Source of the DNA: Candidatus Poribacteria bacterium
GTDB taxonomy: Bacteria; Poribacteria; WGA-4E; PCPOR2b
Length of the DNA: 64,000 bases
Reading direction: 5' to 3'
Assembly: GCA_965208675.1 (NCBI GenBank)
Contig: OZ242351.1
Location: forward strand, 2,432,001 to 2,496,000
Under the pieces are notes generated by a model. That model was not told where the DNA came from. It saw only the letters and a list, made by a program, of their open reading frames with translations, and did not search any database. Positions 17,495 to 44,096 of this stretch are shown one piece after another (position 1 is the stretch's first letter; each line of letters starts with the position of its first letter). The translations under genes were made by a program, and so were the position numbers.

Positions 17495-17508
17495 GTTTCT
17501 CCTTTAAC

Positions 17509-26443: not shown

Positions 26444-26453
26444 AATTCTCCTT

Positions 26454-26996: not shown

Positions 26997-27143
26997 TTGG
27001 AAAGCCTCCTCTAAGGTTGAGTATCCGAGCTATTCAATTCATCATGCCATTGTTTGAACTCATCTAGGAGAAATTGATAATGCTCTCTCATCTCATCGGT
27101 CACTTTTTGACTGCCGTAATTGAAAATTTTAGCTGTCTAAAAT

Positions 27144-27926
27144 CTAATCACTAGCAGGTGCGGCTCTAGTTGTAAAGGAAAAATCAACAACTCCGAGATT
27201 CCCCATATCATCGGTTATTGCTATGCTGACACTATATTTTGTTGCATAATTTAATTCCTGCATGTAGCCAAACTCCCAAGTAGCGATACCAGTACAGGCT
27301 CGCATACTTTCATTGTCAATACGCAGAGCAGCAACTTTTATCGGGGGACTGATCTCAAAAGATGTTGAGCCTCGCATGGCCTGTATGGGGCGGTCAAATA
27401 CAACTCGCACCCCGCGTGTGGTTTTTGGGTCAACATCTTGCCCAATTGGGTGATATTCAAGGACTATCGGCGCAGCGATGTCAAATGGTGCTATCCGAAA
27501 CCATCCTACATAAGGATGGGCCTGGACATCGCCATTGACGTTCTGGAAATCACGAATGACAATCGAACTTATATTGTCGTCCGGTGCAACATACGCAAAT
27601 GTTCGAAAGCATTGATTCCATGTAATGGTATCGGTCGCTTCGGTCTCTTGAAGTTGATAAGGTGTGACGCCAAACACAATACGACCTGAATTTGGTATGA
27701 TTGGCTGGCTGAAACTGATACGAAATTCTTGCGTAGCGGTGTTCAGTTCAGCGGGTGCAGAGTGCTGAGCGCCGGGTTTTGGGCTGAATGCTATCACCCG
27801 CGGGGGATTCATCGGTTGTTCTGGTCGTATGCTATCATCCGTTGGCTCTGATGAGCAGCCAATGACCAAAAACCACCCTAAAACAAGACAAACTATAAGA
27901 AACGGCAAAATGATTTGTAGTTTCAT
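27144..27926 (-). CDS. Ig-like-domain lipoprotein (domains C+D); candidate cognate immunity protein of Rhs 27956
   Basis: Lipobox VIGC; QEFRISFSQPIIPNSGRIVFG..ITWNQC; immediately downstream of the Rhs gene. Confidence 0.75.
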   Translation of the reverse strand: MKLQIILPFLIVCLVLGWFLVIGCSSEPTDDSIRPEQPMNPPRVIAFSPKPGAQHSAPAELNTATQEFRISFSQPIIPNSGRIVFGVTPYQLQETEATDTITWNQCFRTFAYVAPDDNISSIVIRDFQNVNGDVQAHPYVGWFRIAPFDIAAPIVLEYHPIGQDVDPKTTRGVRVVFDRPIQAMRGSTSFEISPPIKVAALRIDNESMRACTGIATWEFGYMQELNYATKYSVSIAITDDMGNLGVVDFSFTTRAAPASD

Positions 27927-27955
27927 ATTTTCCACCATACGCAATTACGTTTAGG

Positions 27956-30900
27956 TTACTGAATTTTTATACTGCCCCACGTAACTAGATTATACTGAGT
28001 AATCAGAGGTTGAAACCAAGATAAAGCTGAGTGTGCGTCTTGAACACTTATAACTTGCCTGCGATACTCCTCAAACCTCATATCCATACGTAAATCAACC
28101 ACCGTTCTTCCCCAAGAAAGTTGCCAGGCGATATGGAAGTAGGACTGGGTTGCCGAAGCATGTTGTTCCATGCCTAAGTTCAGGGTCGTTAATTCATGCC
28201 TATTGAACGCATAAAACGATTTGTCCGGAGGCGGATCTCGCCAAGGTGAACGTCCGCGAAAACGATTGTACTTCCGCTGCCACGCATGAGTTACTTCGTG
28301 AATCAAAATACCCAATGCGTTTGTGACATCGGCGGTAAGTGAACCGTTGCTACCAAAAGCATCGGATGTTGTCGATCCTGCATTGAGACCGGCATAGAAG
28401 TCCGGATTAACTGCGATTCTGTGCTTACCGTCTCGAAATTCTAGATACTTTCCTCTTACGGGCTTTCCTCGACTGTCAAAAAGAGGCTTTATAGTTATAT
28501 CCAACTCATCCGCAGATATGGATCCGTTAAATACCATATCCACAGCATACGACTCCAATGCACTTAGGGCTCTCAACCCCGTCGGGTCGATAAACGCCAA
28601 CGGATTGTTATTCGCATAGGCATACCAGTTGATGCCATCTCCGGCGGGATCTCGCTGATTAAACCTGCCAGTGTAGGGGTCATAGCCGACGGGACGCCCG
28701 GGGAAATGGTATAATTTTACATCACTTTCATACTCTTTACCCGTGAACTTGCGCGCGTTGTCGGTCGTGCCGACTTCAGAGCGCACTGCGCCGAACACGT
28801 CGTACTCATACCGCACAAGCACATTCTTGTTATCGTCCGTTAAGACGATGTTGCTGCCCAAAGCGTTGGGGTGGTGGTATTCATAGCGTCCCATCTGATT
28901 GTTTGACAACTTAGTTATCTCAGCGTCGCTTAGCGCAGCGTCGTAGATGGATACATCGTCGAGATAACCGTTGAGGTGGTGGTTAGTCGCATCATAAAAT
29001 CCCATCCACAACGCCTTGGTCGTTGCCGCCAACGACGCTGTTGATGCCGTTGAAGCCGTGTCTTTGGTGCCGCCGATAAAGACGCGGAGTTCGCTGCCGT
29101 CATACCGAGCCGCCACATGCTTCCATGTGTTTAAGGGGATGGTCGTTGCACTGGTGACGGTCTTGGTTGTCCCGCTGAACAGCACCTCGAACTGAACCGC
29201 GCCGGTGCTAGTTATCCAGAGCCGATACCCGTTAGAGGCGTTTGCCTTTTTGACCAGATTCCCGCTCGCCACAGTGGACCGCTTCACCCAACAACTGATG
29301 GTTAGTGTATTGCCAACAAGGTCTAAGGCATCACTGTCTGCGACTTTTACGACATCGTTAGTGCCGTCAAAAAGGAGGCTACCCCCGTTTTCAGTGCTCC
29401 AAGCAGGCTTTTTGTTTTCAGTGCCGCCGCCCAGCGTGCCGTTCTGGCTGCCGTCAACGTCATGCGCCACAGTGCCGGTGCCTTCATCAAAGTGCCAATG
29501 CGCAACGGCATTGTGTTTCCGGCGATATACAACGCCGTTGCCGCCATAGAGATAGCTGGCCGTGATGTTCTTGCTTGAATCCAATTCTAGCACCGGCATC
29601 AAGCCGTCGTAAAGAAAATACCTTGTGCCCTGGCTGTCCGAGACTTTCACCCGTTTGCCCCCGCCGTCGTAGGCGTATGTGAGCGTCTGTGTCACCGTGT
29701 TGTTTCGGGTCTTCTGAATCTGTTTCAACTGCGAACCGAATCCGTAGGTAAATGCGTCCGAATCCGTGCCTTCGCTCCGTTGCGTCAGCTTCCCTTCAGC
29801 ATCGTAGGTGTAATTCATCGTCGAGAAGTCGGTATCTTCAGGCACTAGTGAACGGTAGGTCAATTGGTTGCTGTTGGTGGCAACCGTGTAGGTCGTCGTG
29901 CCATCAACGCTGCTCACCTGTGTGAGCCGGTTGCCGGACTTGTCGTAGGTGTAGCTGACGGTCTCGTTCCCGTAGTTGGCGCTAGTCAAGCGTGAGATAT
30001 TATCGTAACCGAATGTGAACGTCTTGCTTGACCCGCCGGCGCCGGTATCGTCTCTCACCAACTGCGTCACATTCGATTTGTCGTCGTAGGTGTAGGTTAA
30101 GGAACTGAGCGTAGTGGAAGCGTCCTTCTTGTACGTCAGCGTGCTTAAGCGGTTGACGTTATCAAGCGTTCGATGCGCGGTGATGCCGTTTGGAACCGTG
30201 ACTTTCTTCAACGCCCCGATGTCGAAGTAACCGTAGCTTTCGGTCTTGTTAGCAAGCACGTCCTTAACCGTCAGCAGCCGGTTGGCTTCGTCGTAGGTAT
30301 ACTGGACATCGTATAACTTTGTGGTTGTGCTGCCGGTAGTTGGATTGACGTACATGCGCGTCCGCATCGAAGAATCGTCGTATTCGTAGACGGTCTTATA
30401 ACCCAAGAGCGAATCGGTGCGGTTCTTGATGCGGTTGAGTTGGTCGTGCGTGAAGGTATAGGTGTAAGTATTCGCGCCGTCGTTGGTCTTTTGGGTAAGC
30501 ACGTTGTCGCCCAAGTCGTAGGTGTAGTCTACGACCTCGCCCGTCTTGTAGCTGACTTTCGAGAGGCGGTTGAGGTTGTCGTAGGTATTGCTGACGGCGG
30601 GGCTGGTTTCAGTGCCGGTTTGGCTCGTCCACGCCTTCGTAACCTGATTCAGGGTATTGTAGCGCGTCTCCACCCAATCGCCGTCGGGCAAGGTCTGCTT
30701 AGTCACTCTGCCGAGTTCATCGACGGTATAGTTGGTTATCAAGCCGCGGGGGTCTTTGGTCTGGGAAATGTCGCCGGCAATGTTGTAGACCGTTTCGGCT
30801 GTAGCGTATGGAGTCGTCCAGTTATCCTTGAAGCTGTGGGCTTTGACGGCGCGGTTCATGGCGTCGTATTCGGTTTTGGTCTGGGCTATTAGCGTGCCGG

Positions 30901-32887
30901 TCTGCCAGTTGTTCTTGCGGACTTGGGTCTGGGTGACGTTGCCGTTCTTGTCGTAGGTTGGGATGGTGTGCATGTTATCGGCAACGCGCCGGGTGTATTT
31001 TAGCTTTCTATCTTTCCAGTAGGCGTATTCGGTGCGTCTGCCCTGCGCGTCAATGTCTGCCGTTTTCAACCCGCGGTTGACATCCCACTCGGATTTGGTC
31101 TTGATGATATGGTCTGCACCGTTTACTGTGACGGTGGTCTTGACCTCGATTGGATACGTGTGATGGGTCGCATCATAGACAGTCTCCACAACCTTCTCTT
31201 GCGTTGTCCCCGGCATGAAGGTGGTCTTGGTTCGGTTGCCGTAGGAGTCGTAGGTGTGCTTGGTGATGATGTCGTGGTCGACGGCGTGGGGCTGTGTGCC
31301 GGTATTGGCTTTGCTGCGCTGCTCGGTGAGATTTCCCTTCGAGTCGTAGGTGAACGTCGTCTTATGCCCCATCGGGTCTATCTGCCAGAGGGGGCGGTTA
31401 AACTTTGTCTCGTAGTCCGCCGTCCATTTGCGGAAAACAGAGCCATTCGTGGTATCTATCTGTTCCCAATTCGTGGCGTTGCCCATCTGACTGTTGTGGG
31501 TGGCATTTGTGCCCGCATAGTAGATTTTGTACAGAAAATCCAGGCTGGAAGAAGCACCGCCATGTTGCGATCTAATAAGATTTCTATTGGAGTATACCCA
31601 ACGCGAATCGGCATAAGACGCCCGCGGCATTTTCACACCTTTTACATATATCCAGCGTCTGCTTCCCAAACCGTGGTGTTTAGCAATGACGGCGCTTGAG
31701 GTGACAGTATAGCCGGCGTAATGCCGGTCGCTTCCGCTTTCTATGGCATGACGGCGGTTGTTATGTCTACTAGTAATAAAATAGTACCGGCGATATACTA
31801 TGTCCCCGTGAATGCTGCCTGCCTTGGGAAGATTTCTGACGTACACAGTTGACACCTGGAGGTGCTTGAGTCCATAGTTATATAAATAGCTAATTGTGGT
31901 TCGAGAGCCCAACGGAGAGACGATTGCTGAGAGATAGCGATAGTTATTCTTGTAGTAGGTTTCGTATTCGTATTGAGTCTTTAACTCACTGCCGCGGGGG
32001 TCGCCGGTGCCAAGCGGATGTGTAACGGATTTCAGGCAAGTTCGCACAGGTCTCGCGTATCTGCCATAGCAACCGTGGCTGTATTTTACCGTCCGATAGA
32101 CGGTTGTTAATGCCGTTGGCGTGCCCAAACCGAACTCAATTTTACTGATATGCCGCGTCAAATTCGTGTTATCTATCCGGACATCATAGTAGAATTTCAG
32201 TATCCGTCCGAGCGAATCTTCCACCGCGACGAGCCGGGGATATTTAGGAGCGCTAGTGCCTTGATAGCGTGTCTCAGGTGCGTTCTCATAATGGAGTGTA
32301 AGTTTGTTGCCGTTCGGGTCTAAAATCTCTTTCAACACATACCGCGCGTAACGATCGGTGACAAGTTGCTCAAACGTGTATTTGATACCGTGCTTGGTTG
32401 TGTAGATAAATGCGCCAGCCTGTGTGCCTGACTGCACTAACTTCAAAGTGGCGCGCACCCCGGCTTTAGGGGTTAATTTTATGTTAGGTTTTCTGCCAGT
32501 TCCCGTAAAGGTATGTTTCGCGCCGCTGCCGGTGGTAATTGATACGATCTGCAGTTTGTAAGCTCTACTCCCGTAATGCCACGCCCCACCAGTGTATATA
32601 TCCCATTGATAGGAATGAGACCAATCGTGTCCGATATAACTGGCGCCTTGATACCAATTACGAGAGATGCCGTTGTAAATGTAATTCCGCGTAAATTCAA
32701 GCCCCAATCCGCGCCCCGGCACAGTCAAATCGGTCTCCGAAAAAACGAGCTGAAAAGAAATCATATTGACCATGCTGTCCATCTCTTGCGGGTAATTCGG
32801 CACGGGACTTCCGAACTGGCTGGGGGCGGTGTTAGAAAAAGCGAATAGCATCAAAGTTATTAACAGATAGAAACAGATTTGCTTCAT
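27956..32887 (-). CDS. Rhs/YD-repeat protein with Sec signal, inserted LamG domain and HExxH C-terminal domain
   Basis: Signal peptide; DUF6531-like LEFTRNY..GHDWSHSY; YD repeats; WHFDEG..LDDVSIYDAALS LamG; RDPAG..NNPLAFIDPTG; CT with HEVTHAWQ; ends VTWGSIKIQ. Confidence 0.93.
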   Translation of the reverse strand: MKQICFYLLITLMLFAFSNTAPSQFGSPVPNYPQEMDSMVNMISFQLVFSETDLTVPGRGLGLEFTRNYIYNGISRNWYQGASYIGHDWSHSYQWDIYTGGAWHYGSRAYKLQIVSITTGSGAKHTFTGTGRKPNIKLTPKAGVRATLKLVQSGTQAGAFIYTTKHGIKYTFEQLVTDRYARYVLKEILDPNGNKLTLHYENAPETRYQGTSAPKYPRLVAVEDSLGRILKFYYDVRIDNTNLTRHISKIEFGLGTPTALTTVYRTVKYSHGCYGRYARPVRTCLKSVTHPLGTGDPRGSELKTQYEYETYYKNNYRYLSAIVSPLGSRTTISYLYNYGLKHLQVSTVYVRNLPKAGSIHGDIVYRRYYFITSRHNNRRHAIESGSDRHYAGYTVTSSAVIAKHHGLGSRRWIYVKGVKMPRASYADSRWVYSNRNLIRSQHGGASSSLDFLYKIYYAGTNATHNSQMGNATNWEQIDTTNGSVFRKWTADYETKFNRPLWQIDPMGHKTTFTYDSKGNLTEQRSKANTGTQPHAVDHDIITKHTYDSYGNRTKTTFMPGTTQEKVVETVYDATHHTYPIEVKTTVTVNGADHIIKTKSEWDVNRGLKTADIDAQGRRTEYAYWKDRKLKYTRRVADNMHTIPTYDKNGNVTQTQVRKNNWQTGTLIAQTKTEYDAMNRAVKAHSFKDNWTTPYATAETVYNIAGDISQTKDPRGLITNYTVDELGRVTKQTLPDGDWVETRYNTLNQVTKAWTSQTGTETSPAVSNTYDNLNRLSKVSYKTGEVVDYTYDLGDNVLTQKTNDGANTYTYTFTHDQLNRIKNRTDSLLGYKTVYEYDDSSMRTRMYVNPTTGSTTTKLYDVQYTYDEANRLLTVKDVLANKTESYGYFDIGALKKVTVPNGITAHRTLDNVNRLSTLTYKKDASTTLSSLTYTYDDKSNVTQLVRDDTGAGGSSKTFTFGYDNISRLTSANYGNETVSYTYDKSGNRLTQVSSVDGTTTYTVATNSNQLTYRSLVPEDTDFSTMNYTYDAEGKLTQRSEGTDSDAFTYGFGSQLKQIQKTRNNTVTQTLTYAYDGGGKRVKVSDSQGTRYFLYDGLMPVLELDSSKNITASYLYGGNGVVYRRKHNAVAHWHFDEGTGTVAHDVDGSQNGTLGGGTENKKPAWSTENGGSLLFDGTNDVVKVADSDALDLVGNTLTISCWVKRSTVASGNLVKKANASNGYRLWITSTGAVQFEVLFSGTTKTVTSATTIPLNTWKHVAARYDGSELRVFIGGTKDTASTASTASLAATTKALWMGFYDATNHHLNGYLDDVSIYDAALSDAEITKLSNNQMGRYEYHHPNALGSNIVLTDDNKNVLVRYEYDVFGAVRSEVGTTDNARKFTGKEYESDVKLYHFPGRPVGYDPYTGRFNQRDPAGDGINWYAYANNNPLAFIDPTGLRALSALESYAVDMVFNGSISADELDITIKPLFDSRGKPVRGKYLEFRDGKHRIAVNPDFYAGLNAGSTTSDAFGSNGSLTADVTNALGILIHEVTHAWQRKYNRFRGRSPWRDPPPDKSFYAFNRHELTTLNLGMEQHASATQSYFHIAWQLSWGRTVVDLRMDMRFEEYRRQVISVQDAHSALSWFQPLITQYNLVTWGSIKIQ
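28911..32700. repeat. 3.79-kb direct repeat (second copy 38410-42199): shared Rhs core
   Basis: Constant 9499-bp offset; identical shadow ORFs in both copies; no mismatch noticed by eye. Confidence 0.9.
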
Positions 32888-32905
32888 TGTGTGTGTCCTC
32901 CTGAG

Positions 32906-33751
32906 TTATTGACTTGTTTTGCCGTATAATTGATGAATCCATGTGGATTTGTCGAGCGCTTGTTTGGCTTCGGCGTCTCTTTTGTGTTCCTTTAGGCAGA
33001 GAGCGCGTAGACCTAGGAAGCCCGACATTTCTTCTGCCGGTGATAGCGATTTCAAAAAGCGGTTGGCTTGTTCTTCTGCTTCGGTGAATGGGTGCGGCCA
33101 CTTGCGGTAATACGAATCCGGATAAGGATTCCACCCTCGCCCTGTCGCCTCAATGTTGAAACGTCCATTTTCCGACTCCCACCGCGCAAAGAGATGAGCT
33201 TTAGCGCGTACCAACTTTAACGGGTAGCCTAAGCGTCTACCGATGGCAACAACCAAGACAGGCATCGAGGCGCAAGTTCCCATGGGACGCTGAGATAACA
33301 GCCCATGAAGGAACAAATCTTTTGAATCGGCAAAAAACCGCGTCGATTTAAGGTCGTCCAATGCGCCAGTCTCAATCAGTTCGGAATTGTATTTGACCCC
33401 CATATCCTGCGCTAAGACCGTCACCATCATCTCTATCTGGTAATATGCCAGTGAGTTGTTGTAATAGCCCTTATCTCGATGAAATAGATGTTGGTAGCGT
33501 TCGGTTTCCGACTCAATCCGCCGCACCCATTCATCGAGTTTCGCTAAAGCGGCCGGAATATCCAATGCTTCAGCGCCGGGCAGCCCCTGCGCACAAACCA
33601 TGTTGATGTAGGCAATATCAAACTCTGGCAGTGCCGTTTCCAGTTCTTTTTCTGTTATAGCAAGTAACTTTTCAACCGATAGCGGCTCGGCAAATTGCGC
33701 TGAGCATAGCGCAGGCATCAAATGGAGAATTAGCACAGAGATTTTTGGCAT
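32906..33751 (-). CDS. Secreted transglutaminase-like (SirB1/Transglut_core2-type) protein
   Basis: DLFLHGLL..GTCASMPVLVVAIGRRLGYPL...AHLFARW..FNIEAT; putative Cys-His catalytic residues. Confidence 0.7.
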   Translation of the reverse strand: MPKISVLILHLMPALCSAQFAEPLSVEKLLAITEKELETALPEFDIAYINMVCAQGLPGAEALDIPAALAKLDEWVRRIESETERYQHLFHRDKGYYNNSLAYYQIEMMVTVLAQDMGVKYNSELIETGALDDLKSTRFFADSKDLFLHGLLSQRPMGTCASMPVLVVAIGRRLGYPLKLVRAKAHLFARWESENGRFNIEATGRGWNPYPDSYYRKWPHPFTEAEEQANRFLKSLSPAEEMSGFLGLRALCLKEHKRDAEAKQALDKSTWIHQLYGKTSQ

Positions 33752-33811
33752 GAGAATAAAAACAGCAAATTGAAAAGGAGGAAAAAGACAGCGGCGAGTG
33801 TTGTGAAAAAT

Positions 33812-34579
33812 TTACTCGCTCGCCGTTTGGAAGCGAATCACAATCGGGCCGTCCTCAAGCCCTCTGCCTCTATCTCCACCGATGTTATAAAGGTCTAACA
33901 GATGGATTTCATATTCATGACCCGGCAAAAGCCAATCGTCTTCGCTTGCAGGCAACAGGGTAGCAATGTCTTGATCGCTTGCCCAATCAATTATCCAATT
34001 CAGCCTCATTTGACCGCTGTAAACTTCAATCGGGGATCGTTGGATGTCAATAAAAGTGTTAAAAGTAATCCGTATCCCTTCTCGGTTCAACTGATCGGCA
34101 TTAGCATCAGTTTGCTTATGACTTATATTTGCTTCCTGAATCGCTGGTAAGGGCCTCGAAACATGGTAAGCGCCCAGGGTCACATCAAGCGTATCTCCAT
34201 GCTGGACACCGGGTTCGTCTTCGTAGACTATCCTCAAGGTCACATCCTTTTCAGGATTAAAGCCGTCTTGACTATCCCACACCTCTAGTCGGTTGGTTTC
34301 CAGCAGCCAAATCGTCGCCGCCGGTTTTTGATTTGGTCTAGCGTCTACCTCATTGATGCTAACCTGTCGGACAGGCTTGTCAAAGACAAGCTCTATTGTA
34401 TCCGAATGCGAAATTATCTCACGTCCATTTAGTGGAAGGATGCTGACAACCAACTCTTGAAGGCCTCGATAGTAATAAGCACTAGCTTCTATGAGCCGCG
34501 CTGGTTGTATTTCCTCATCCGCTGAGCAGCCAATGAGCAAACACAGCACGGCACACAGCATCACACTGTTCAACAGCAT
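33812..34579 (-). CDS. Ig-like-domain lipoprotein (domains A+B)
   Basis: Lipobox LIGC, family motifs. Confidence 0.8.
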   Translation of the reverse strand: MLLNSVMLCAVLCLLIGCSADEEIQPARLIEASAYYYRGLQELVVSILPLNGREIISHSDTIELVFDKPVRQVSINEVDARPNQKPAATIWLLETNRLEVWDSQDGFNPEKDVTLRIVYEDEPGVQHGDTLDVTLGAYHVSRPLPAIQEANISHKQTDANADQLNREGIRITFNTFIDIQRSPIEVYSGQMRLNWIIDWASDQDIATLLPASEDDWLLPGHEYEIHLLDLYNIGGDRGRGLEDGPIVIRFQTASE

Positions 34580-34591
34580 GTCATAATTCCT

Positions 34592-35389
34592 TTAATCCGC
34601 CGTCTGGAAGCGAATCACAAGCGGCTTCTCCTCAAGCCTCTCTCCCCTTGTGCCCTTGTAATCATAAAAATCGACCACATGAACTTCATAATCCTGCCCC
34701 GGCAGTAACCAATCATCTTCGCTTTCAGGCATCAGGATGACCGTGTGAACCGCCCCATTATCATCGTCCAATGTCCAACGATAAATACTCCAATCAAGCA
34801 TTTCTTGACCGCTGTAAACTTCAATCTTGGTTCGGTATGGGCGGTTATCCATCTCCTTATCAAAACCAATCTTTATCCCTTCTTGGTTCAACCGATTGGC
34901 ATCTACATCAACCTCACCACTCCATGGATCCAAGAACACAATGAGCGGGGGGAACACGTCAAGACTGTATGCGCCTAAAGTTACATCCAGCGTGTCTTTA
35001 TGGATGCCAGCTTCATCTTCATAGATTACCATCAAGGTTACATCTCGTTCCGGATTCCATCCAATTTGGAGATTCCACACATCTTCTAGGTGGTTGCTTT
35101 CCAGTTTCCAAATTGTCGTCGGCGGCATTTCATCGGGTTGGGCTTTAGCACTATAATTGATGCTTACTTCCAGAACAGGTTTATCAAAGACAAGCTCAAT
35201 TGTTGTAGTAGTCCCAATTACGCCAGGAAGCGGAAATGAACTCTGTGGAGTATCCTCATCATAGCCACGGGCTTCTATCAACTGCGCCGGTTGTAATTCC
35301 TCATCCGCTGAGCAGCCAATGAGCAAGCACAATCCACAAAACAGCATTGAACCTCTCGTCAGTGCATCGTAAAACCTTGCTAACTTCAT
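34592..35389 (-). CDS. Ig-like-domain lipoprotein (domains A+B); candidate partner of mini-Rhs
   Basis: Start ATG 35389 after an AAAGGAGG embedded in the mini-Rhs end; lipobox LIGC. Confidence 0.8.
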   Translation of the reverse strand: MKLARFYDALTRGSMLFCGLCLLIGCSADEELQPAQLIEARGYDEDTPQSSFPLPGVIGTTTTIELVFDKPVLEVSINYSAKAQPDEMPPTTIWKLESNHLEDVWNLQIGWNPERDVTLMVIYEDEAGIHKDTLDVTLGAYSLDVFPPLIVFLDPWSGEVDVDANRLNQEGIKIGFDKEMDNRPYRTKIEVYSGQEMLDWSIYRWTLDDDNGAVHTVILMPESEDDWLLPGQDYEVHVVDFYDYKGTRGERLEEKPLVIRFQTAD

Positions 35390-35391
35390 TG

Positions 35392-36192
35392 CTATAGACC
35401 TCCTTTGATACCCCCCAATGTTGTTGCTTTGAGGATGGGTGCACGAATCACATTCAGTAATGGTTCGTATCGCCATGACGAAGCTATATCCACTAGGTCT
35501 TGTCTGCTAAGTGTATCCTCTGATGCCGCCAAATCGCCATAATGACTAGCGTACCACTTGAAAGCCCCACCTGCGGGAAATGCTCCAGCAGCGTGCATGG
35601 CGTAGTAATGTTCTTGAACGGCTTTTGCCATCTGTTCTCGATTCAGTTGCACGTAATATAGTTGATAAAGAGTATGTTCATATCTATCATCAGGGTTTGG
35701 AGAGCCAGACCCAACAGGATCCTGATAGCCCGTCATATCTTGCCAAGCGTGAGTAAGTTCATGCACGAAAGTGCTTAGGCGCGATGGATGAAGATTGACG
35801 TTATCTATATCTATTGCATAGAGCACTATTATACGGTCTCGGAACAGCCACTCCCCGTCTTTACCTGGGCTTTCATCGTGCGTTGCGAATCGTACCGCCG
35901 TGACAAAGTTCATCAGTATATTCGCATTGCTTTCTCCAAAAGAGAAGTTTGCAGCTCCTCGGAGCGTTTCGAGTTCTGCGTTAGTTGCTAATCTGTTAAG
36001 TAACCCCGTCGGATCAATAAACTTCAGCGGATTATTATAGGCATAAATGTACCAGTTGATGCCGTCTCCGGCGGGGTCACGCTGTAAAAAGTGTCCGGCG
36101 TGGGGGTGGTAGTAGGCTTCTAAAGCGGGTGCAGCGATAAGGGTCAGCAGCAGTATTGCAAGGGTAAATCTAAAAACTGTGTTCATAGTCAT
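35392..36192 (-). CDS. 'Mini-Rhs': signal peptide + Rhs core-end cleavage module + HExxH domain
   Basis: 26-aa signal (…AAPALEA), 37-aa YYHPHAGHFLQRDPAG..NNPLKFIDPTG, 203-aa CT with HELTHAWQ..EQMA, ends ATTLGGIKGGL. Confidence 0.88.
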   Translation of the reverse strand: MTMNTVFRFTLAILLLTLIAAPALEAYYHPHAGHFLQRDPAGDGINWYIYAYNNPLKFIDPTGLLNRLATNAELETLRGAANFSFGESNANILMNFVTAVRFATHDESPGKDGEWLFRDRIIVLYAIDIDNVNLHPSRLSTFVHELTHAWQDMTGYQDPVGSGSPNPDDRYEHTLYQLYYVQLNREQMAKAVQEHYYAMHAAGAFPAGGAFKWYASHYGDLAASEDTLSRQDLVDIASSWRYEPLLNVIRAPILKATTLGGIKGGL

Positions 36193-37307
36193 TGCGTGTT
36201 CGGGCGTTTTATTCGATTGCTCCTTTTTGTTGAGAACTCGATTTCGGCATCGACTTGATTCCCCGCAACATCCATAAAATCCCTGAGTTGAATCGTATAG
36301 CGCTGACCTTCCACCAGTTCTTTGCCTTCCGGAGGGGTTATGGTCACTGAATGACTGCTCCTTTCAACATTCCAACCCAGCGGTTCACTATCATCGGAAC
36401 TGATTGTAATCTCGCCCCCGCCAGTTGAACGGTTGAATTTGAAAGTAATGCCATCGGTATTTAATGAATCGAGAGCATCGGGATCCCTAAATCGCTGCCT
36501 ATCTTTGATGGTTTGGGATATGATACCGAAGGGCGGCAATGCTTCAAGCGCTTTTGCCGCTTCGCCAATGCGACACGATTGGAGGCGCTTCAAGACCTCA
36601 GCCGCTTCTTCTCGCGTCCTCCAATCTGGATGGGATAATCCTTCAGCTAATCTAGGAACCACCGCTGGGGGGAGAGTCCCCACTTTCAGCTCCGGCTTAT
36701 TGCACGCATATTCAAAACCATATCCATAAGCGATAGCGGTACCGAAACTAAGCGCCCAATTGCTACTGTGCAACGCCTCGATTAAGGCGGAACGCCCGTG
36801 ATGTCCCATACGCGGGAGCAAAACTTGGGCTGCATCTGGGGAAAAGATGGGAGAACCATAATAGAATAACCGGATAAAACCCGCAATTTCTTCCGGTGTG
36901 AGTTCTTCGCGCCCTGTGTAACCTATGAAGCCACCTATCGCTGAATAACGCATAACCGAATCTTCAGCTTTTAGGGCTTTAACCAACCCACGGACGATGT
37001 GTTTGTAATACGGGGTGCTCGTGTCCTTGTCTAGAAGCTGATGAAACTGATCTCTCATATCATGCAGTGTATTCAAAGCCCACGCCTGCACCCCGGTATC
37101 TTCGTGGTCTAATGCCGCAATCAATGCCGGCACTGCTGCTTCACCTATTTCGGTGAGGGCTTTACTTGCACTGTCTTGGACATCCACATCCGCATGTTCA
37201 AATTGCTGAATCAACGATGCGATGTTCTCATTGTGAGCATGAGACACTATGCTTGCCATGCTCACCAAATATAGACAGATAAGCAGGGTTCGTTTGTGTT
37301 TGTTCAC
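36189..37307 (-). CDS. Secreted HEAT-repeat protein with C-terminal Ig-like domain; candidate cognate immunity protein of Rhs 37434
   Basis: Signal peptide; IGEAAVPALIAAL HEAT repeats; ITFKFNRS..YTIQL..DVAGN; first gene after Rhs; ATGA overlap with mini-Rhs. Confidence 0.75.
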   Translation of the reverse strand: MNKHKRTLLICLYLVSMASIVSHAHNENIASLIQQFEHADVDVQDSASKALTEIGEAAVPALIAALDHEDTGVQAWALNTLHDMRDQFHQLLDKDTSTPYYKHIVRGLVKALKAEDSVMRYSAIGGFIGYTGREELTPEEIAGFIRLFYYGSPIFSPDAAQVLLPRMGHHGRSALIEALHSSNWALSFGTAIAYGYGFEYACNKPELKVGTLPPAVVPRLAEGLSHPDWRTREEAAEVLKRLQSCRIGEAAKALEALPPFGIISQTIKDRQRFRDPDALDSLNTDGITFKFNRSTGGGEITISSDDSEPLGWNVERSSHSVTITPPEGKELVEGQRYTIQLRDFMDVAGNQVDAEIEFSTKRSNRIKRPNTQ

Positions 37308-37433
37308 GGTATATCCTCCTGTATTTTTAAGGTATGATTATCAGACTAAAGCCACTGAACTTTCAGTGTGGAGAACCGTCTGATACAACACCCCATCGAC
37401 GTTTTATCTCAGTTAAAACAGTTGGGCGCCCGA

Positions 37434-40400
37434 TTATCTAGGGAAATAGTTGGAGGCCGTAGCTGCTAAATTACGAAGTTGTTCGGTATAGTCCGCAGAC
37501 CCATACGTGTTGAGTTGTCCTTCTGTAAAGCGACTATAACCAACATACCAGCGGCCAAGTTTACTTTTGCCCACTACCCAATCCATATTTTCTATTGCGA
37601 ACCGGGCGCCTAAATCGAAAGCCATCAGTTCCATGACATAAAGATAAAAATCTTTATCATAACTAGAGCTGCCATGCAGAAATACACTAGGATACATGAT
37701 AAAGTTATGGACATGAGAAAATTCATGAACCAGATCCGTTGTTAATCTAATAAGTTGGCCCACAAATTGGGGATTCGGTGTGTTTTTAACATTTACCGTA
37801 ATACCGCTGTTGTGGAAGTCAGTTGGATCAGTATTAGCATCCGATGCGAGGTTTTTATCAAACTTTATGTTCACTTGCACATCACTTTCAATTATATCGG
37901 TCAGAATACCACCCGCAGCGCCACTTCCAGCAATTCCTGTGCCGTTTATTCCCCCTGTGAATATTGCATCCCAAACCAGACCACCGTCGTCTGTCAAACC
38001 CGCCGGCCTTATATAGTTACCATCAGCATCTGTTTTAGGGACGCTTCTTATTTCGGTGCCGCCCGGCAGGACGATATACATCCCCGTCGGATCGACAAAT
38101 CCAAGCGGGTTATTATACGCATAGGCGTACCAATTCACGCCTTGACCGGCAGGGTCGCGCTGATTAAACGTGCCGGTGTAGGGGTCATAGTATCTCGCTG
38201 CGAAGTAGTAGAGTTTTACATCGCTCTCATACTCTTTGCCCGTGAATTTGCGCGGGTTGTCGCTGGTGCCGACTTCGGAGCGAACTGCGCCGAACACGTC
38301 GTACTCATACCGCACAAGCACATTCTTGTTATCGTCCGTTAAGACGATGTTGCTGCCCAAAGCGTTGGTGTGGTGGTATTCATAGCGTCCCATCTGATTG
38401 TTCGACAATTTAGTTATCTCAGCGTCGCTTAGCGCAGCGTCGTAGATGGATACATCGTCGAGATAACCGTTGAGGTGGTGGTTAGTCGCATCATAAAATC
38501 CCATCCACAACGCCTTGGTCGTTGCCGCCAACGACGCTGTTGATGCCGTTGAAGCCGTGTCTTTGGTGCCGCCGATAAAGACGCGGAGTTCGCTGCCGTC
38601 ATACCGAGCCGCCACATGCTTCCATGTGTTTAAGGGGATGGTCGTTGCACTGGTGACGGTCTTGGTTGTCCCGCTGAACAGCACCTCGAACTGAACCGCG
38701 CCGGTGCTAGTTATCCAGAGCCGATACCCGTTAGAGGCGTTTGCCTTTTTGACCAGATTCCCGCTCGCCACAGTGGACCGCTTCACCCAACAACTGATGG
38801 TTAGTGTATTGCCAACAAGGTCTAAGGCATCACTGTCTGCGACTTTTACGACATCGTTAGTGCCGTCAAAAAGGAGGCTACCCCCGTTTTCAGTGCTCCA
38901 AGCAGGCTTTTTGTTTTCAGTGCCGCCGCCCAGCGTGCCGTTCTGGCTGCCGTCAACGTCATGCGCCACAGTGCCGGTGCCTTCATCAAAGTGCCAATGC
39001 GCAACGGCATTGTGTTTCCGGCGATATACAACGCCGTTGCCGCCATAGAGATAGCTGGCCGTGATGTTCTTGCTTGAATCCAATTCTAGCACCGGCATCA
39101 AGCCGTCGTAAAGAAAATACCTTGTGCCCTGGCTGTCCGAGACTTTCACCCGTTTGCCCCCGCCGTCGTAGGCGTATGTGAGCGTCTGTGTCACCGTGTT
39201 GTTTCGGGTCTTCTGAATCTGTTTCAACTGCGAACCGAATCCGTAGGTAAATGCGTCCGAATCCGTGCCTTCGCTCCGTTGCGTCAGCTTCCCTTCAGCA
39301 TCGTAGGTGTAATTCATCGTCGAGAAGTCGGTATCTTCAGGCACTAGTGAACGGTAGGTCAATTGGTTGCTGTTGGTGGCAACCGTGTAGGTCGTCGTGC
39401 CATCAACGCTGCTCACCTGTGTGAGCCGGTTGCCGGACTTGTCGTAGGTGTAGCTGACGGTCTCGTTCCCGTAGTTGGCGCTAGTCAAGCGTGAGATATT
39501 ATCGTAACCGAATGTGAACGTCTTGCTTGACCCGCCGGCGCCGGTATCGTCTCTCACCAACTGCGTCACATTCGATTTGTCGTCGTAGGTGTAGGTTAAG
39601 GAACTGAGCGTAGTGGAAGCGTCCTTCTTGTACGTCAGCGTGCTTAAGCGGTTGACGTTATCAAGCGTTCGATGCGCGGTGATGCCGTTTGGAACCGTGA
39701 CTTTCTTCAACGCCCCGATGTCGAAGTAACCGTAGCTTTCGGTCTTGTTAGCAAGCACGTCCTTAACCGTCAGCAGCCGGTTGGCTTCGTCGTAGGTATA
39801 CTGGACATCGTATAACTTTGTGGTTGTGCTGCCGGTAGTTGGATTGACGTACATGCGCGTCCGCATCGAAGAATCGTCGTATTCGTAGACGGTCTTATAA
39901 CCCAAGAGCGAATCGGTGCGGTTCTTGATGCGGTTGAGTTGGTCGTGCGTGAAGGTATAGGTGTAAGTATTCGCGCCGTCGTTGGTCTTTTGGGTAAGCA
40001 CGTTGTCGCCCAAGTCGTAGGTGTAGTCTACGACCTCGCCCGTCTTGTAGCTGACTTTCGAGAGGCGGTTGAGGTTGTCGTAGGTATTGCTGACGGCGGG
40101 GCTGGTTTCAGTGCCGGTTTGGCTCGTCCACGCCTTCGTAACCTGATTCAGGGTATTGTAGCGCGTCTCCACCCAATCGCCGTCGGGCAAGGTCTGCTTA
40201 GTCACTCTGCCGAGTTCATCGACGGTATAGTTGGTTATCAAGCCGCGGGGGTCTTTGGTCTGGGAAATGTCGCCGGCAATGTTGTAGACCGTTTCGGCTG
40301 TAGCGTATGGAGTCGTCCAGTTATCCTTGAAGCTGTGGGCTTTGACGGCGCGGTTCATGGCGTCGTATTCGGTTTTGGTCTGGGCTATTAGCGTGCCGGT

Positions 40401-42389
40401 CTGCCAGTTGTTCTTGCGGACTTGGGTCTGGGTGACGTTGCCGTTCTTGTCGTAGGTTGGGATGGTGTGCATGTTATCGGCAACGCGCCGGGTGTATTTT
40501 AGCTTTCTATCTTTCCAGTAGGCGTATTCGGTGCGTCTGCCCTGCGCGTCAATGTCTGCCGTTTTCAACCCGCGGTTGACATCCCACTCGGATTTGGTCT
40601 TGATGATATGGTCTGCACCGTTTACTGTGACGGTGGTCTTGACCTCGATTGGATACGTGTGATGGGTCGCATCATAGACAGTCTCCACAACCTTCTCTTG
40701 CGTTGTCCCCGGCATGAAGGTGGTCTTGGTTCGGTTGCCGTAGGAGTCGTAGGTGTGCTTGGTGATGATGTCGTGGTCGACGGCGTGGGGCTGTGTGCCG
40801 GTATTGGCTTTGCTGCGCTGCTCGGTGAGATTTCCCTTCGAGTCGTAGGTGAACGTCGTCTTATGCCCCATCGGGTCTATCTGCCAGAGGGGGCGGTTAA
40901 ACTTTGTCTCGTAGTCCGCCGTCCATTTGCGGAAAACAGAGCCATTCGTGGTATCTATCTGTTCCCAATTCGTGGCGTTGCCCATCTGACTGTTGTGGGT
41001 GGCATTTGTGCCCGCATAGTAGATTTTGTACAGAAAATCCAGGCTGGAAGAAGCACCGCCATGTTGCGATCTAATAAGATTTCTATTGGAGTATACCCAA
41101 CGCGAATCGGCATAAGACGCCCGCGGCATTTTCACACCTTTTACATATATCCAGCGTCTGCTTCCCAAACCGTGGTGTTTAGCAATGACGGCGCTTGAGG
41201 TGACAGTATAGCCGGCGTAATGCCGGTCGCTTCCGCTTTCTATGGCATGACGGCGGTTGTTATGTCTACTAGTAATAAAATAGTACCGGCGATATACTAT
41301 GTCCCCGTGAATGCTGCCTGCCTTGGGAAGATTTCTGACGTACACAGTTGACACCTGGAGGTGCTTGAGTCCATAGTTATATAAATAGCTAATTGTGGTT
41401 CGAGAGCCCAACGGAGAGACGATTGCTGAGAGATAGCGATAGTTATTCTTGTAGTAGGTTTCGTATTCGTATTGAGTCTTTAACTCACTGCCGCGGGGGT
41501 CGCCGGTGCCAAGCGGATGTGTAACGGATTTCAGGCAAGTTCGCACAGGTCTCGCGTATCTGCCATAGCAACCGTGGCTGTATTTTACCGTCCGATAGAC
41601 GGTTGTTAATGCCGTTGGCGTGCCCAAACCGAACTCAATTTTACTGATATGCCGCGTCAAATTCGTGTTATCTATCCGGACATCATAGTAGAATTTCAGT
41701 ATCCGTCCGAGCGAATCTTCCACCGCGACGAGCCGGGGATATTTAGGAGCGCTAGTGCCTTGATAGCGTGTCTCAGGTGCGTTCTCATAATGGAGTGTAA
41801 GTTTGTTGCCGTTCGGGTCTAAAATCTCTTTCAACACATACCGCGCGTAACGATCGGTGACAAGTTGCTCAAACGTGTATTTGATACCGTGCTTGGTTGT
41901 GTAGATAAATGCGCCAGCCTGTGTGCCTGACTGCACTAACTTCAAAGTGGCGCGCACCCCGGCTTTAGGGGTTAATTTTATGTTAGGTTTTCTGCCAGTT
42001 CCCGTAAAGGTATGTTTCGCGCCGCTGCCGGTGGTAATTGATACGATCTGCAGTTTGTAAGCTCTACTCCCGTAATGCCACGCCCCACCAGTGTATATAT
42101 CCCATTGATAGGAATGAGACCAATCGTGTCCGATATAACTGGCGCCTTGATACCAATTACGAGAGATGCCGTTGTAAATGTAATTCCGCGTAAATTCAAT
42201 CCCTAATCCGCGCCCCGGAACAACCAAATCGGTCTCCGAGTGAATGCTCCCAAAGGTAATCATATTGACCATGCCGTCCATCTCTTGCGGGTGACGCGGC
42301 ACCGGACTCCCGAACTGGCTTACGGCGGCGCTAGAGAAAGCGAATACCATCAGACTTATTAACATACAAAAACAGAAATTTCTTTTCAT
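37434..42389 (-). CDS. Rhs/YD-repeat protein with Sec signal, inserted LamG domain and a different HExxH C-terminal domain
   Basis: Same core as 27956; ARYYDP..RDPAG..NNPLGFVDPTG; CT with LVHEFSH..ELMA. Confidence 0.93.
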   Translation of the reverse strand: MKRNFCFCMLISLMVFAFSSAAVSQFGSPVPRHPQEMDGMVNMITFGSIHSETDLVVPGRGLGIEFTRNYIYNGISRNWYQGASYIGHDWSHSYQWDIYTGGAWHYGSRAYKLQIVSITTGSGAKHTFTGTGRKPNIKLTPKAGVRATLKLVQSGTQAGAFIYTTKHGIKYTFEQLVTDRYARYVLKEILDPNGNKLTLHYENAPETRYQGTSAPKYPRLVAVEDSLGRILKFYYDVRIDNTNLTRHISKIEFGLGTPTALTTVYRTVKYSHGCYGRYARPVRTCLKSVTHPLGTGDPRGSELKTQYEYETYYKNNYRYLSAIVSPLGSRTTISYLYNYGLKHLQVSTVYVRNLPKAGSIHGDIVYRRYYFITSRHNNRRHAIESGSDRHYAGYTVTSSAVIAKHHGLGSRRWIYVKGVKMPRASYADSRWVYSNRNLIRSQHGGASSSLDFLYKIYYAGTNATHNSQMGNATNWEQIDTTNGSVFRKWTADYETKFNRPLWQIDPMGHKTTFTYDSKGNLTEQRSKANTGTQPHAVDHDIITKHTYDSYGNRTKTTFMPGTTQEKVVETVYDATHHTYPIEVKTTVTVNGADHIIKTKSEWDVNRGLKTADIDAQGRRTEYAYWKDRKLKYTRRVADNMHTIPTYDKNGNVTQTQVRKNNWQTGTLIAQTKTEYDAMNRAVKAHSFKDNWTTPYATAETVYNIAGDISQTKDPRGLITNYTVDELGRVTKQTLPDGDWVETRYNTLNQVTKAWTSQTGTETSPAVSNTYDNLNRLSKVSYKTGEVVDYTYDLGDNVLTQKTNDGANTYTYTFTHDQLNRIKNRTDSLLGYKTVYEYDDSSMRTRMYVNPTTGSTTTKLYDVQYTYDEANRLLTVKDVLANKTESYGYFDIGALKKVTVPNGITAHRTLDNVNRLSTLTYKKDASTTLSSLTYTYDDKSNVTQLVRDDTGAGGSSKTFTFGYDNISRLTSANYGNETVSYTYDKSGNRLTQVSSVDGTTTYTVATNSNQLTYRSLVPEDTDFSTMNYTYDAEGKLTQRSEGTDSDAFTYGFGSQLKQIQKTRNNTVTQTLTYAYDGGGKRVKVSDSQGTRYFLYDGLMPVLELDSSKNITASYLYGGNGVVYRRKHNAVAHWHFDEGTGTVAHDVDGSQNGTLGGGTENKKPAWSTENGGSLLFDGTNDVVKVADSDALDLVGNTLTISCWVKRSTVASGNLVKKANASNGYRLWITSTGAVQFEVLFSGTTKTVTSATTIPLNTWKHVAARYDGSELRVFIGGTKDTASTASTASLAATTKALWMGFYDATNHHLNGYLDDVSIYDAALSDAEITKLSNNQMGRYEYHHTNALGSNIVLTDDNKNVLVRYEYDVFGAVRSEVGTSDNPRKFTGKEYESDVKLYYFAARYYDPYTGTFNQRDPAGQGVNWYAYAYNNPLGFVDPTGMYIVLPGGTEIRSVPKTDADGNYIRPAGLTDDGGLVWDAIFTGGINGTGIAGSGAAGGILTDIIESDVQVNIKFDKNLASDANTDPTDFHNSGITVNVKNTPNPQFVGQLIRLTTDLVHEFSHVHNFIMYPSVFLHGSSSYDKDFYLYVMELMAFDLGARFAIENMDWVVGKSKLGRWYVGYSRFTEGQLNTYGSADYTEQLRNLAATASNYFPR

Positions 42390-42409
42390 GATACTTTCCT
42401 CCTTTAGAT

Positions 42410-42478
42410 GCAGTGCCAGTAGCCAGTGGTCAGTGACCAGAATGAAGCTTTTACTGGCGACTGGGCACTAGCCACTGC
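42410..42478. repeat. Heptamer-based palindromic element (CAGTGNC units)
   Basis: GCAGTGCCAGTAGCCAGTGGTCAGTGACCAG...ACTGGCGACTGGGCACTAGCCACTGC; relatives inside CDSs at 44885-44957 and 46402-46483. Confidence 0.7.
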
Positions 42479-42479
42479 T

Positions 42480-43616
42480 TTATTCCGGTATCGGGGGACT
42501 TGTGTCACCGTTTGCGTCGTTGGCTCCCGTTGTTCCAACCGGTCCTATGTCTGCGCCCCGATCCTCAAGTATTGATAGATACTCCTTCGCTTTTTCCGAA
42601 TCGCCTCCGGCTTCAGACGTCTGCACAGCATGCCACAACGATTCGTCAATCAAACCGTCAAACCGTGCCTTTGCCGCCGCCAATGCCTCAGCACGCTCTT
42701 TCGCGCCGTCAAACAGAGCGGAGAACACATTCGCAAACACCGTATCCTTACGCGTTATACCCGCCGCTTCCGCGTATAACCGAGAAGCACTAAGCTGCCC
42801 ATCGGAGTTGTAGAAGTCTTCTTCCTTCGTCCACTTCGCCTTGGTCGCTAATTCCTGTACCTGCATCACATTGGCTTCAATGGCTAAAAGGTGTGTTGGG
42901 TAGTCTATCAGGAATTGCGCGTAGGATACCGTGTTGTCGGTGGTGAAGGCGGTCCGCGTCAGTTCTAATGCGTCGAACCACGTCTGACCGGCGTTGTGGT
43001 TGGAGATGCACCACACGCTCAACTTCACCGCTCCATCGGGCGGCAAAGCACTGACGGTGACTGTCCCCCAGTCGTTTTCGCCGGCGGGCAGCATAGGTGA
43101 GTCAGACGTGCTTATCATATCTCCATCTTTATTGAACCAGGCTATCAAGAGGTAGACTTCACCGTTGTTGCCTAGGGTCTTGACCTTCCCGGTCAGGGTG
43201 TACCACTGAAAACCGTCTCTCTCAACTGTAAGCTCGTCGCTTGACCATCGACCGTAGTTCCAGCGCGAGCTGTGGATGGAGATGCTGTGGCTGCCGGCGG
43301 ATTTGACCTCGGAATCCCAGATGTAGTTGTCACCGACAAACAAGGTCAGGGGCGTCCAGTTGTTCGGACCTGGGAGTTCCTCATTGTTGTTGCTTTCATC
43401 AAACGACGGGTTAGCGAGCGCGACAGTGACGGCGGCTGCAGGCTGCTCGTCATCACCAGGCCCCACACCAGGGCCGCCGCCGGTTCCGCCAGTACCGCCG
43501 GTTTCACCAGTGCCCCCGGTGTCGTCGTTTCCGCCGGGGATAGGTGACGCGTGGAGAAATGAAGTGGATAACAACAGGAAAAGAATCGTAATTGCGCTTA
43601 TGAAATACCTTGACAT
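42480..43616 (-). CDS. Secreted protein with Gly/Thr linker and CBM4/9-like carbohydrate-binding domain
   Basis: AGGAGG RBS before ATG 43616; signal peptide; ANPSFDE..W..WFDALEL galactose-binding-like pattern. Confidence 0.65.
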   Translation of the reverse strand: MSRYFISAITILFLLLSTSFLHASPIPGGNDDTGGTGETGGTGGTGGGPGVGPGDDEQPAAAVTVALANPSFDESNNNEELPGPNNWTPLTLFVGDNYIWDSEVKSAGSHSISIHSSRWNYGRWSSDELTVERDGFQWYTLTGKVKTLGNNGEVYLLIAWFNKDGDMISTSDSPMLPAGENDWGTVTVSALPPDGAVKLSVWCISNHNAGQTWFDALELTRTAFTTDNTVSYAQFLIDYPTHLLAIEANVMQVQELATKAKWTKEEDFYNSDGQLSASRLYAEAAGITRKDTVFANVFSALFDGAKERAEALAAAKARFDGLIDESLWHAVQTSEAGGDSEKAKEYLSILEDRGADIGPVGTTGANDANGDTSPPIPE

Positions 43617-43856
43617 GTTTTGACCTCCTAAGAGTTTGTTTGATAAAGTCATTTGATACGTTTGCGTATCAAAAATGTGGAAGCTATTCAACATCGCTAA
43701 GAACTTGTTTGAAAAGTCCTTCCTTTCCCGACGAAAAGGGACTGTAGGCATCGCGTAACCCTGCTGCCGTCTTCTGCCGCGGGAAGGATTAAAAGATGCA
43801 TCAATCTCTAGAGCCAGCCGGATTAGAGAAAGACAATCTGCCTCCCCTGTACTATG

Positions 43857-43872
43857 GCAAAAACCGTGCCAA
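43857..43872 (-). promoter_or_regulatory. sigma-54 (RpoN) -24/-12 promoter
   Basis: Minus strand TTGGCACGGTTTTTGC matches TGGCACG-N4-TTGC. Confidence 0.85.
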
Positions 43873-43992
43873 TGGTCGGTTTAAGGAGGAGTTCAACTCT
43901 GTAGAGACGGATAAATTCAGTGGTAGCCTAGGTTCGATGGATATGCGAAGGAGTCAGAAGGACGGTAGCGTGACAGGGTGCGGGTTGAAAAA

Positions 43993-44096
43993 GTCCCATA
44001 TTGGGACTGACAAGATTGGCAGAAATAGCGGATAAGCCTGTAATGACGCGGGATGGGGGCGTTTTCCCAATATGGGAATTTGTCCCATATTGGGAC
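43993..44096. promoter_or_regulatory. Three palindromic boxes TCCCA-N3-TGGGA; putative enhancer (bEBP UAS)
   Basis: GTCCCATATTGGGAC at 43993-44007 and 44082-44096; TTCCCAATATGGGAA at 44064-44078; 120-225 bp upstream of the sigma-54 site. Confidence 0.75.

Follow-up and report, generated by a model that had tools for sequence, protein, structure and literature searches.

A 64,000-nucleotide stretch of a Candidatus Poribacteria genome (contig OZ242351.1, positions 2,432,001 to 2,496,000; hereafter the window) encodes a protein of 266 residues in which, as judged from its sequence, a predicted Sec-type signal peptide is joined directly to the last half of an Rhs-associated core, followed by a zincin-like C-terminal toxin domain (CT). 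We refer to this gene as the short form. We consider it moderately probable that its product is a polymorphic toxin exported through Sec without a cage, that an envelope protein provides the immunity to it, and that its Rhs tip is an exchange junction and possibly a self-cleaving pro-segment. The gene comprises the following parts:

35392..36192, minus strand: short-form Rhs toxin gene (open reading frame list, partial TIGR03696 match, relatives)
36115..36192, minus strand: predicted Sec-type signal peptide, codons 1–26 (sequence features)
36001..36114, minus strand: last half of the Rhs-associated core, codons 27–64 (TIGR03696 positions 37–76)
35395..36000, minus strand: C-terminal toxin domain with a zincin-like fold, codons 65–266 (AlphaFold2 model and structure match)
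35749..35763, minus strand: HELTH, an HExxH metal-binding/catalytic motif, residues 144–148 (read from the sequence)

The open reading frame (ORF) starts with ATG and encodes 266 aa without an internal stop, confirming the intact gene described in an initial annotation. Its ATG overlaps the stop codon of the upstream ORF 36189..37307 (ATGA), and the Shine–Dalgarno (SD) sequence AAAGGAGG lies at 35399–35406 within its last codons, 9 nt ahead of the ATG of the next gene at 35389, so that both the overlap and the ribosome-binding site reported initially were found again. The leader (residues 1–26, MTMNTVFRFTLAILLLTLIAAPALEA) has Arg8 in its n-region, a hydrophobic core of 13–15 residues (~17 with its flanks), Leu at −3 and Ala at −1. 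Based on this n/h/c layout, the fit to the −3/−1 rule and its conservation in the family, we predict a Sec signal, with cleavage placed after Ala26 (LEA/YY).

Residues 27–64 matched positions 37–76 of the 76 positions of NCBIfam TIGR03696 (E 7.2e-11, 42.4 bits; cut-off 32.5). The complete core was not found in the short form; Rhs1 and Rhs2, the two neighbouring full-length proteins, match positions 1–76. Likewise, the 266-residue protein yielded no RHS/YD repeats (PF05593, TIGR01643), which both full-length genes match, and a Pfam scan returned no family above threshold. The half-core aligns with the last 40 residues of the solved TcC/Rhs shells (YenC2 651–691, also TccC3) and contains both DPxG motifs, RDPAG at residues 38–42 (Asp39) and DPTG at 60–63 (Asp60), the latter followed by Leu. 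The leader, the core end with both motifs and the HExxH domain thus stand in the direct succession that the initial annotation had described. The protein carries the autoproteolysis motif (DPxG ... DPxG[LM], with two Asp), tested as a motif only, and the usual Rhs cleavage site would fall after DPTG at the end of the half-core. For Pseudomonas protegens RhsA, PMC8765631 gives D1324 and D1346 as the catalytic residues, with cleavage at residue 1350; Asp39 and Asp60 appear to occupy the corresponding motif positions. In the AlphaFold2 (AF2) model the half-core has predicted local distance difference test (pLDDT) values of 44–60, i.e. its folding alone is not predicted. Residues 29 and 34 of the window copy (36094–36108) are His (YYHPHAGHF), and the same two residues are found in P0009, its nearest relative in the databases.

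A TIGR03696 profile search of the 4.89-Mb genome returned five matches, two full (Rhs1 and Rhs2) and three partial, all three of the latter beginning at profile position 37. The two other short forms, ORFs of 275 and 279 aa located about 610 kb off, have a near-identical leader, the same A/YY junction and different HExxH CTs; they lie ~610 kb from any rhs gene and possess their own SD or coupling. A protein search against 1.84 billion representatives gave 4530 matches at E ≤ 0.001, and 15 of the 150 matches listed carry the leader directly before the core end. With a leader-plus-half-core profile (alignment A3) run against longer proteins in 90%-identity clusters, with 8000 candidates scored, the best 44 of the 120 listed clusters reached 105–132 bits, all of them leader-bearing and of 126–287 aa, separated by a score gap from leaderless proteins at ≤93 bits. 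No full-length Rhs protein with the short-form leader was among these best 44 (≤287 aa) and the best long protein scored at the leaderless level, which is weak evidence at 8000 candidates. Given three genome copies and 44 further clusters, the combination of leader and half-core is more than chance.

In public data, at least 49 protein clusters share the leader/YYDP junction in front of many different CTs. The architecture thus recurs beyond this genome; confinement to a single genome would have counted against the initial annotation. There are two main leader types, each ending in Ala before YYDP. Among 49 relatives, Ala at −1 and the first Asp are present in 49/49, and the second Asp in 48/49, with one shifted by an indel. 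The CTs are diverse: HExxH occurs in no fewer than eight variants, several CTs lack this motif, and one has a PT-TG pre-toxin domain. The ORFs are intact and regular in length, in most cases 250–287 aa. The family therefore shows a constant N-terminal region with polymorphic C-termini and several paralogues in one lineage. The small residues at −1/−3, kept in 49/49 relatives, also bear on a different reading, a membrane-tethered form in which the leader would stay uncleaved as a signal anchor and keep the protease at the producer's inner membrane, facing the periplasm, in a housekeeping or self-directed role. The hydrophobic core with its flanks (~17 residues together), modelled by AF2 within one helix spanning residues 3–27, would suit such an anchor, but the core itself, at 13–15 residues, is short for a membrane span, and polymorphic CTs, paired partners and cassette replacement are hallmarks of conflict systems, not of housekeeping; we regard tethering as very unlikely.

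Leader-spanning matches occurred at seven places in three of 176 genomes of the phylum: this genome (three), a same-genus genome (three) and a genome of another genus (one). Among 185,579 species, each represented by one genome, matches that cover the leader were confined to Poribacteria; L079 and L090, two apparent exceptions in a UBP2 metagenome-assembled genome, are full-length Rhs proteins whose alignments had been extended spuriously. Other Poribacteria contain ordinary orphans with a whole core and no leader, in line with the distinction that the initial annotation had drawn between this gene and ordinary orphan modules. Sequencing runs containing the stretch are mostly labelled sponge metagenomes, and none of those listed for 34592–37307 is an RNA run. 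Of the family members looked up by source name, one is a "hypothetical protein" and the others are nameless, and a full-text literature search found no paper describing the short-form architecture. For five DNA copies (10 pairs), the ratio of nonsynonymous to synonymous substitutions (dN/dS) of the half-core was 0.08–0.39; together with the leader values given further below, these small numbers fit a translated, constrained tip and a leader tolerating hydrophobic swaps.

We next turn to the CT, which is 202 aa long (residues 65–266; 203 aa counted from the end of DPTG). The AF2 model, calculated from a 34-row alignment, had a mean pLDDT of 76, with values of ~90 for CT residues 66–200. A VIA-align search of 48,161 chains, for which the tool calls Z 7–8 common background, gave as the best match 6h56_B, the VgrG2b effector domain (Z 8.9, root-mean-square deviation 3.7, 130 aa aligned, 23% identity), followed by anthrax lethal factor (Z 7.1) and then many zincins (rows 2–5 and many below). 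In the model, a helix of residues 136–154 carries H144, E145 and H148 and a second helix, 185–200, the conserved E186. Within alignment A4, H144 is conserved in 31/32, E145 in 30/31 and H148 in 30/31 sequences, and W150, Q151 and E186 are conserved as well. The model thus supports, at moderate strength, a zincin fold in which the active-site helix bears HExxH and a third ligand follows further along the chain. This reading is strengthened by the all-zincin ranking, by the conservation of H144/E145/H148/E186 and by edge-of-detection Pfam matches in relatives (DUF6782, M91, eCIS_core). PF13699 (eCIS_core/DUF4157) gave no match in the window CT even at E ≤ 10, and its gathering score was not reached; one of 34 relatives matched at 1.9e-4, with the same E-value and score as P0160 (22.0 bits, cut-off 22). 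Foldseek against the PDB returned only weak rows for the toxin and no match at E ≤ 0.001, and an ESM Atlas features search pointed to small zincin families (best 0.86), to be read as leads only. VgrG2b-CT itself is described in PMC6899460 as a DUF4157 domain toxic only in the periplasm, with immunity proteins that have a signal peptide or a lipobox.

The short form is surrounded on the same strand by two full-length rhs genes and a series of genes for exported proteins:

37434..42389, minus strand: full-length Rhs2, 1651 aa, with a signal-peptide-like N-terminus, RHS repeats, a LamG insert, a complete core and an HEFSH CT
36189..37307, minus strand: secreted HEAT-repeat protein with a C-terminal immunoglobulin (Ig)-like part, candidate Rhs2-CT immunity (Pfam HEAT_2)
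34592..35389, minus strand: lipoprotein A, candidate cognate immunity of the short form, 265 aa, lipobox LIGC with Cys26 (ORF, SD AAAGGAGG, model)
33812..34579, minus strand: lipoprotein B, 52% identical to lipoprotein A, spare or orphan immunity candidate (blastp)
32906..33751, minus strand: secreted Transglut_core2 protein, just upstream of Rhs1 (Pfam)
27956..32887, minus strand: full-length Rhs1, 1643 aa, CT with HEVTH (NCBIfam/Pfam, blastp)

The complete order on the minus strand is secretin, a 544-aa ORF, a PilO-like gene, a 423-aa secreted protein, Rhs2, the HEAT/Ig protein, the short form, lipoprotein A, lipoprotein B, Transglut_core2, Rhs1, a Big_5 lipoprotein and an island of further genes, and every local toxin, long or short, is followed by a gene for a secreted protein or lipoprotein. 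Lipoprotein A was modelled with a pLDDT of 87 as two tandem Ig-like β-domains and matched tandem-Ig structures. Several of its 45 homologues share longest-contig sizes of 5435, 32841, 38203, 3848 and 53686 with the toxin homologues P0004, P0001, P0002/3, P0005 and P0006, respectively, which we read as the same contigs, the lipoprotein homologues travelling with the toxin homologues. Based on order, coupling, lipobox and co-occurrence, lipoprotein A is the candidate envelope immunity protein of the short form. Comparable pairing is seen for the HEAT gene: the Rhs2 CT is 54% identical to the CT of the short form L003, and the HEAT genes after each are also 54% identical (blastp), which fits cognate pairs. 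Rhs1 and Rhs2 are 99% identical over residues 3–1362, their differences being confined to the core end and what follows it; the Rhs1 CT is 32.5% identical to that of the short form. The lipoprotein encoded after Rhs1 has no clear kinship with lipoprotein A (hhalign probability 54%, 17 columns).

Sequence exchange at the tip was most apparent in the sister genome of the same genus. There, 1314 nt of the orthologous locus match at 98.7% identity; they cover the HEAT gene and the leader as well as most of the half-core, and the homology ends at window position 36005, past which a different CT and then a different partner gene follow. Contigs of runs X6 and X8, from two other studies, break at 36021 and go on into the sister-type allele, and X11 contigs are pieces of the window allele, including the CT and lipoproteins. 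In the sister copy (L039:3001-3783), a stop codon interrupts the frame after 69 codons, NPTG replaces DPTG, and the other CT goes on in the same frame. Moreover, for 38 of 44 short-form CTs there is a leaderless homologue that spans 60% or more of the CT; identities reach 92%, and proteins of 1249–1622 aa are among these homologues. These shared CTs and the allele switch together indicate that CTs of a single pool pass between the two chassis, the tip serving as their junction.

The recombination proposed in the initial annotation is thereby upheld as exchange at the core end, seen in the sister-genome locus and the X6/X8 contigs; donation of the CT to Rhs1 is not supported by the 33-nt match cited for it. 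The match (36051–36083 versus 28624–28656, 30/33 identical) is the coding sequence of the conserved QRDPAGDGINW, and the whole 114-nt half-core is 84/114 identical to Rhs1 and 82/114 to Rhs2 (72–74%), with a longest exact run of 14 nt; the match is too short and the sequences are too divergent to argue for donation.

These exchange data also bear on whether the gene is used at all. It could be a silent orphan cassette, a stored CT-plus-immunity module useful only after recombining into an rhs gene, with the leader carried along by accident with a duplicated 5' constant region. Its orphan position after the Rhs2 immunity gene, the documented CT displacement at the half-core, CT types common to full-length Rhs, and a leader with lower synonymous divergence (pS 0.05–0.25) than the half-core (0.17–0.51), fitting gene conversion, all agree with this, as does the conservation of ~40 nt 5' of the ATG, as expected of a recombination arm. 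However, the leader retains its signal-peptide features in both of its divergent types and across the 49 clusters, in all of which Ala stands at −1 (49/49). The ORFs, mostly of 250–287 aa, are intact, and the half-core dN/dS is well below 1. Two copies, furthermore, lie ~610 kb from rhs genes with their own SD or coupling, the half-core DNA matches the resident rhs genes by just 72–74% with exact runs of ≤14 nt, and leaderless whole-core orphans fill the storage role in related genomes. We therefore consider a silent cassette unlikely.

The conserved 5' segment lies at 36193–36232 in the window, at L004:1385–1422 and at 2963–3000 in L038 and L040, and is absent in L003. It encodes the C-terminal tail (..RIKRPN..) of otherwise unrelated upstream ORFs, HEAT in the window and Transglut_core2 in L004. 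Three of five copies have a hairpin in it, CGGGCG-AAUAAAA-CGCCCG, with a z of about −1.8 to −2.0, placed between GGAG and the ATG; in the window copy its stem is broken. Scans of 32500–44500 for promoters (19 versus 12.8±3.3) and terminators (14 versus 12.9±4.2) were at chance.

A further group of readings assigns the tip an activity or a partner of its own. It is distinctly unlikely, in our estimate, that the 38-residue tip is autonomous, either as a minimal, cocoon-free aspartyl autoprotease or pro-segment or as a docking tag to the Rhs cocoon or a secretin route; were it a docking tag, one toxin pool could be deployed in two ways, encapsulated or naked. In a partner-dependent variant, the exported tip would dock on the Rhs cocoon, on the secreted protein encoded upstream or on the secretin system, which would carry or release the toxin. 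Despite its strong conservation, the tip is modelled as unfolded (pLDDT 44–60), a combination that a segment folding upon contact with a partner would show, and PMC3482391 proposes that constant N-terminal modules of other Sec-dependent toxins bind an upstream-encoded partner. Rhs2 is immediately preceded, on its own strand, by a secretin/PilO-like cluster, a secretin again lies within a few kb of rhs genes in the sister genome, and a Transglut_core2 gene precedes both Rhs1 and the short form L004. Against this, both cocoons have their own complete tips and the genome has no tip-less shell, the upstream gene varies by copy (HEAT, Transglut_core2 or a gap), and no secretin homologue was found at E ≤ 1e-20 in the four of four genomes of the other genus, including the one with a short form. 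Such cargo is thus very improbable. Loading in trans into a full Rhs shell, which the initial annotation had offered as an option, found no support: a search of the genome for extra or tip-less shells yielded only Rhs1 and Rhs2, each with its own complete core end, plus LamG-only proteins, and the second short-form cluster has no nearby shell. A 1585-aa ORF of that cluster, considered as a tip-less shell, is a helicase.

The cluster upstream of Rhs2 (42480–49882, minus strand) consists of the secretin (PF00263, 47495–49882), the PilO-like gene (44579–45466), the 544-aa ORF, which is without a Pfam match, and the 423-aa secreted protein; the same-genus genome has a secretin of 71% identity, placed a few kb 5' of rhs genes. 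This cluster could form the outer-membrane route for Sec-exported Rhs proteins. Rhs1 and Rhs2 both have the LamG insert (PF13385, ~residues 1174–1325) and signal-peptide-like N-termini. In the second cluster, a 78%-identical copy of the Transglut_core2 gene (L006:10118–10990) is directly followed by the short form L004, the two overlapping by ATGA; for other bacteria, PMC3482391 describes inactive transglutaminase domains fused after the signal peptide of RHS toxins. Beside this second cluster lies a 182-aa phage-integrase-family fragment (L006:16620–17168, minus strand), adjoined by helicase and creatininase genes. Downstream of Rhs1, the island at 13910–27944 (minus strand) looks like a poly-immunity locus with Big_5 lipoproteins and HEAT-repeat proteins; it includes two lipoprotein A paralogues (14426–14983 and 14996–15793), a SUKH-1/SMI1 protein (23056–23943) and an IS4/5 transposase (20269–21060).

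Comparing the short form with known systems, we found that it shares with full-length Rhs proteins (RhsA, YenC2, TccC3) the core end with two DPxG motifs 21 residues apart, a variable CT, an immunity-type gene downstream and CT families within the lineage. In contrast to these, it lacks YD repeats, the cocoon and the N-terminal half of the core, a predicted signal peptide replacing the first 36 profile positions, and its toxin would be unencapsulated. Orphan rhs-CT/immunity modules are reported downstream of rhs genes by Poole et al. 2011 (PMC3150448) and Koskiniemi et al. 2014 (PMC3967940). As in these modules, the short form follows the immunity gene of the main toxin, has a core-fragment junction and shows CT replacement between close relatives, but it is not start-less, having its own ATG, leader and coupling, keeps half of the core with a precise, conserved boundary (A/YYDP), and occurs away from rhs genes too.

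A third group are the polymorphic toxins that depend on Sec and the type II secretion system and have a lineage-specific constant N-terminal module, for which Zhang et al. 2012 (PMC3482391) list MafB/MAFB-N of Neisseria, Microscilla-N and APD1/2. With MafB-like toxins the short form has in common a short lineage-conserved module, here behind a predicted signal peptide, polymorphic CTs, here with candidate immunity genes, and several copies per genome. Its module differs in being a 38-residue piece of Rhs core with the autoprotease dyad rather than a lineage-specific globular domain, and a junction is therefore shared with full-length Rhs genes; MAFB-N/DUF1020 gave no Pfam match in the short form. 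By analogy, the short form would work most like these Sec-dependent toxins with constant N-terminal modules. With regard to the CT, the closest counterpart is that of Pseudomonas aeruginosa VgrG2b (6h56; DUF4157/eCIS_core), as described by Wood et al. 2019 (PMC6899460), with HExxH, the best structural match and, in both cases, an adjoining downstream gene whose product has an export signal or lipobox. The short form differs from it by the absence of a PF13699 match, by predicted Sec delivery instead of a type VI secretion spike and by a tandem-Ig lipoprotein as the partner.

Of the options raised in the initial annotation, an expressed, secreted pro-toxin is the best-fitting, as far as the sequence can tell. 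For the Sec-exported, cage-less toxin that we favour, the leader would take the protein through Sec and be cut after Ala26, and the mature protein would begin with YYxPxxG.F.QRDP, i.e. the last ~38 core residues with both presumed catalytic Asp residues and the DPxG site. The CT, zincin-like in its modelled fold, would act as a metallopeptidase outside the cytoplasm on the envelope of competitors. The lipoprotein encoded next, with its SD inside the last codons of the toxin gene, would provide envelope-located immunity, as suggested by gene order, location signals and co-occurrence. As the comparisons indicate, the tip would be kept as a constant junction at which CT-plus-immunity cassettes are swapped among short forms and with full-length rhs genes, and it may in addition be a pro-segment removed after DPTG.

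Several observations weigh against this proposal. According to PMC8765631, the protease region of solved Rhs proteins is a much larger spiral within the cocoon; since the half-core alone is predicted to be disordered, self-cleavage without a shell is doubtful. A secreted protease would also need a route across the outer membrane of a competitor. In the window copy, there is no SD near its own ATG, which relies on the ATGA overlap, and the two His residues of its tip stand where 46/49 relatives have Asp and 47/49 have Arg, respectively, so that this copy may be drifting. The sister copy L039 is probably decaying, indicating that such genes can decay. The dN/dS of the leader, 0.33–0.78 with one pair at 1.66 for the same 10 pairs, is only mildly below 1. 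For the CT, the Z of 8.9 is barely above the stated background of the tool, and Pfam gave sub-threshold matches only (DUF6782, M78, M91), none reaching threshold.

Taken together, the short form is a real, recurrent and apparently undescribed variant of the Rhs polymorphic-toxin theme. The Rhs cocoon is thought to be needed for shielding the producer, for autoproteolysis and for delivery. Repeatedly, this lineage has retained no more of the cocoon than its final 38 residues, the dyad included, placed behind a predicted signal peptide and ahead of the toxin domains of its full-length Rhs proteins. If made and exported, the short form would be a natural test of the Rhs tip acting alone and would show how periplasm-acting toxins are handled without encapsulation. 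It would also add a polymorphic-toxin chassis to an uncultured phylum of sponge symbionts.

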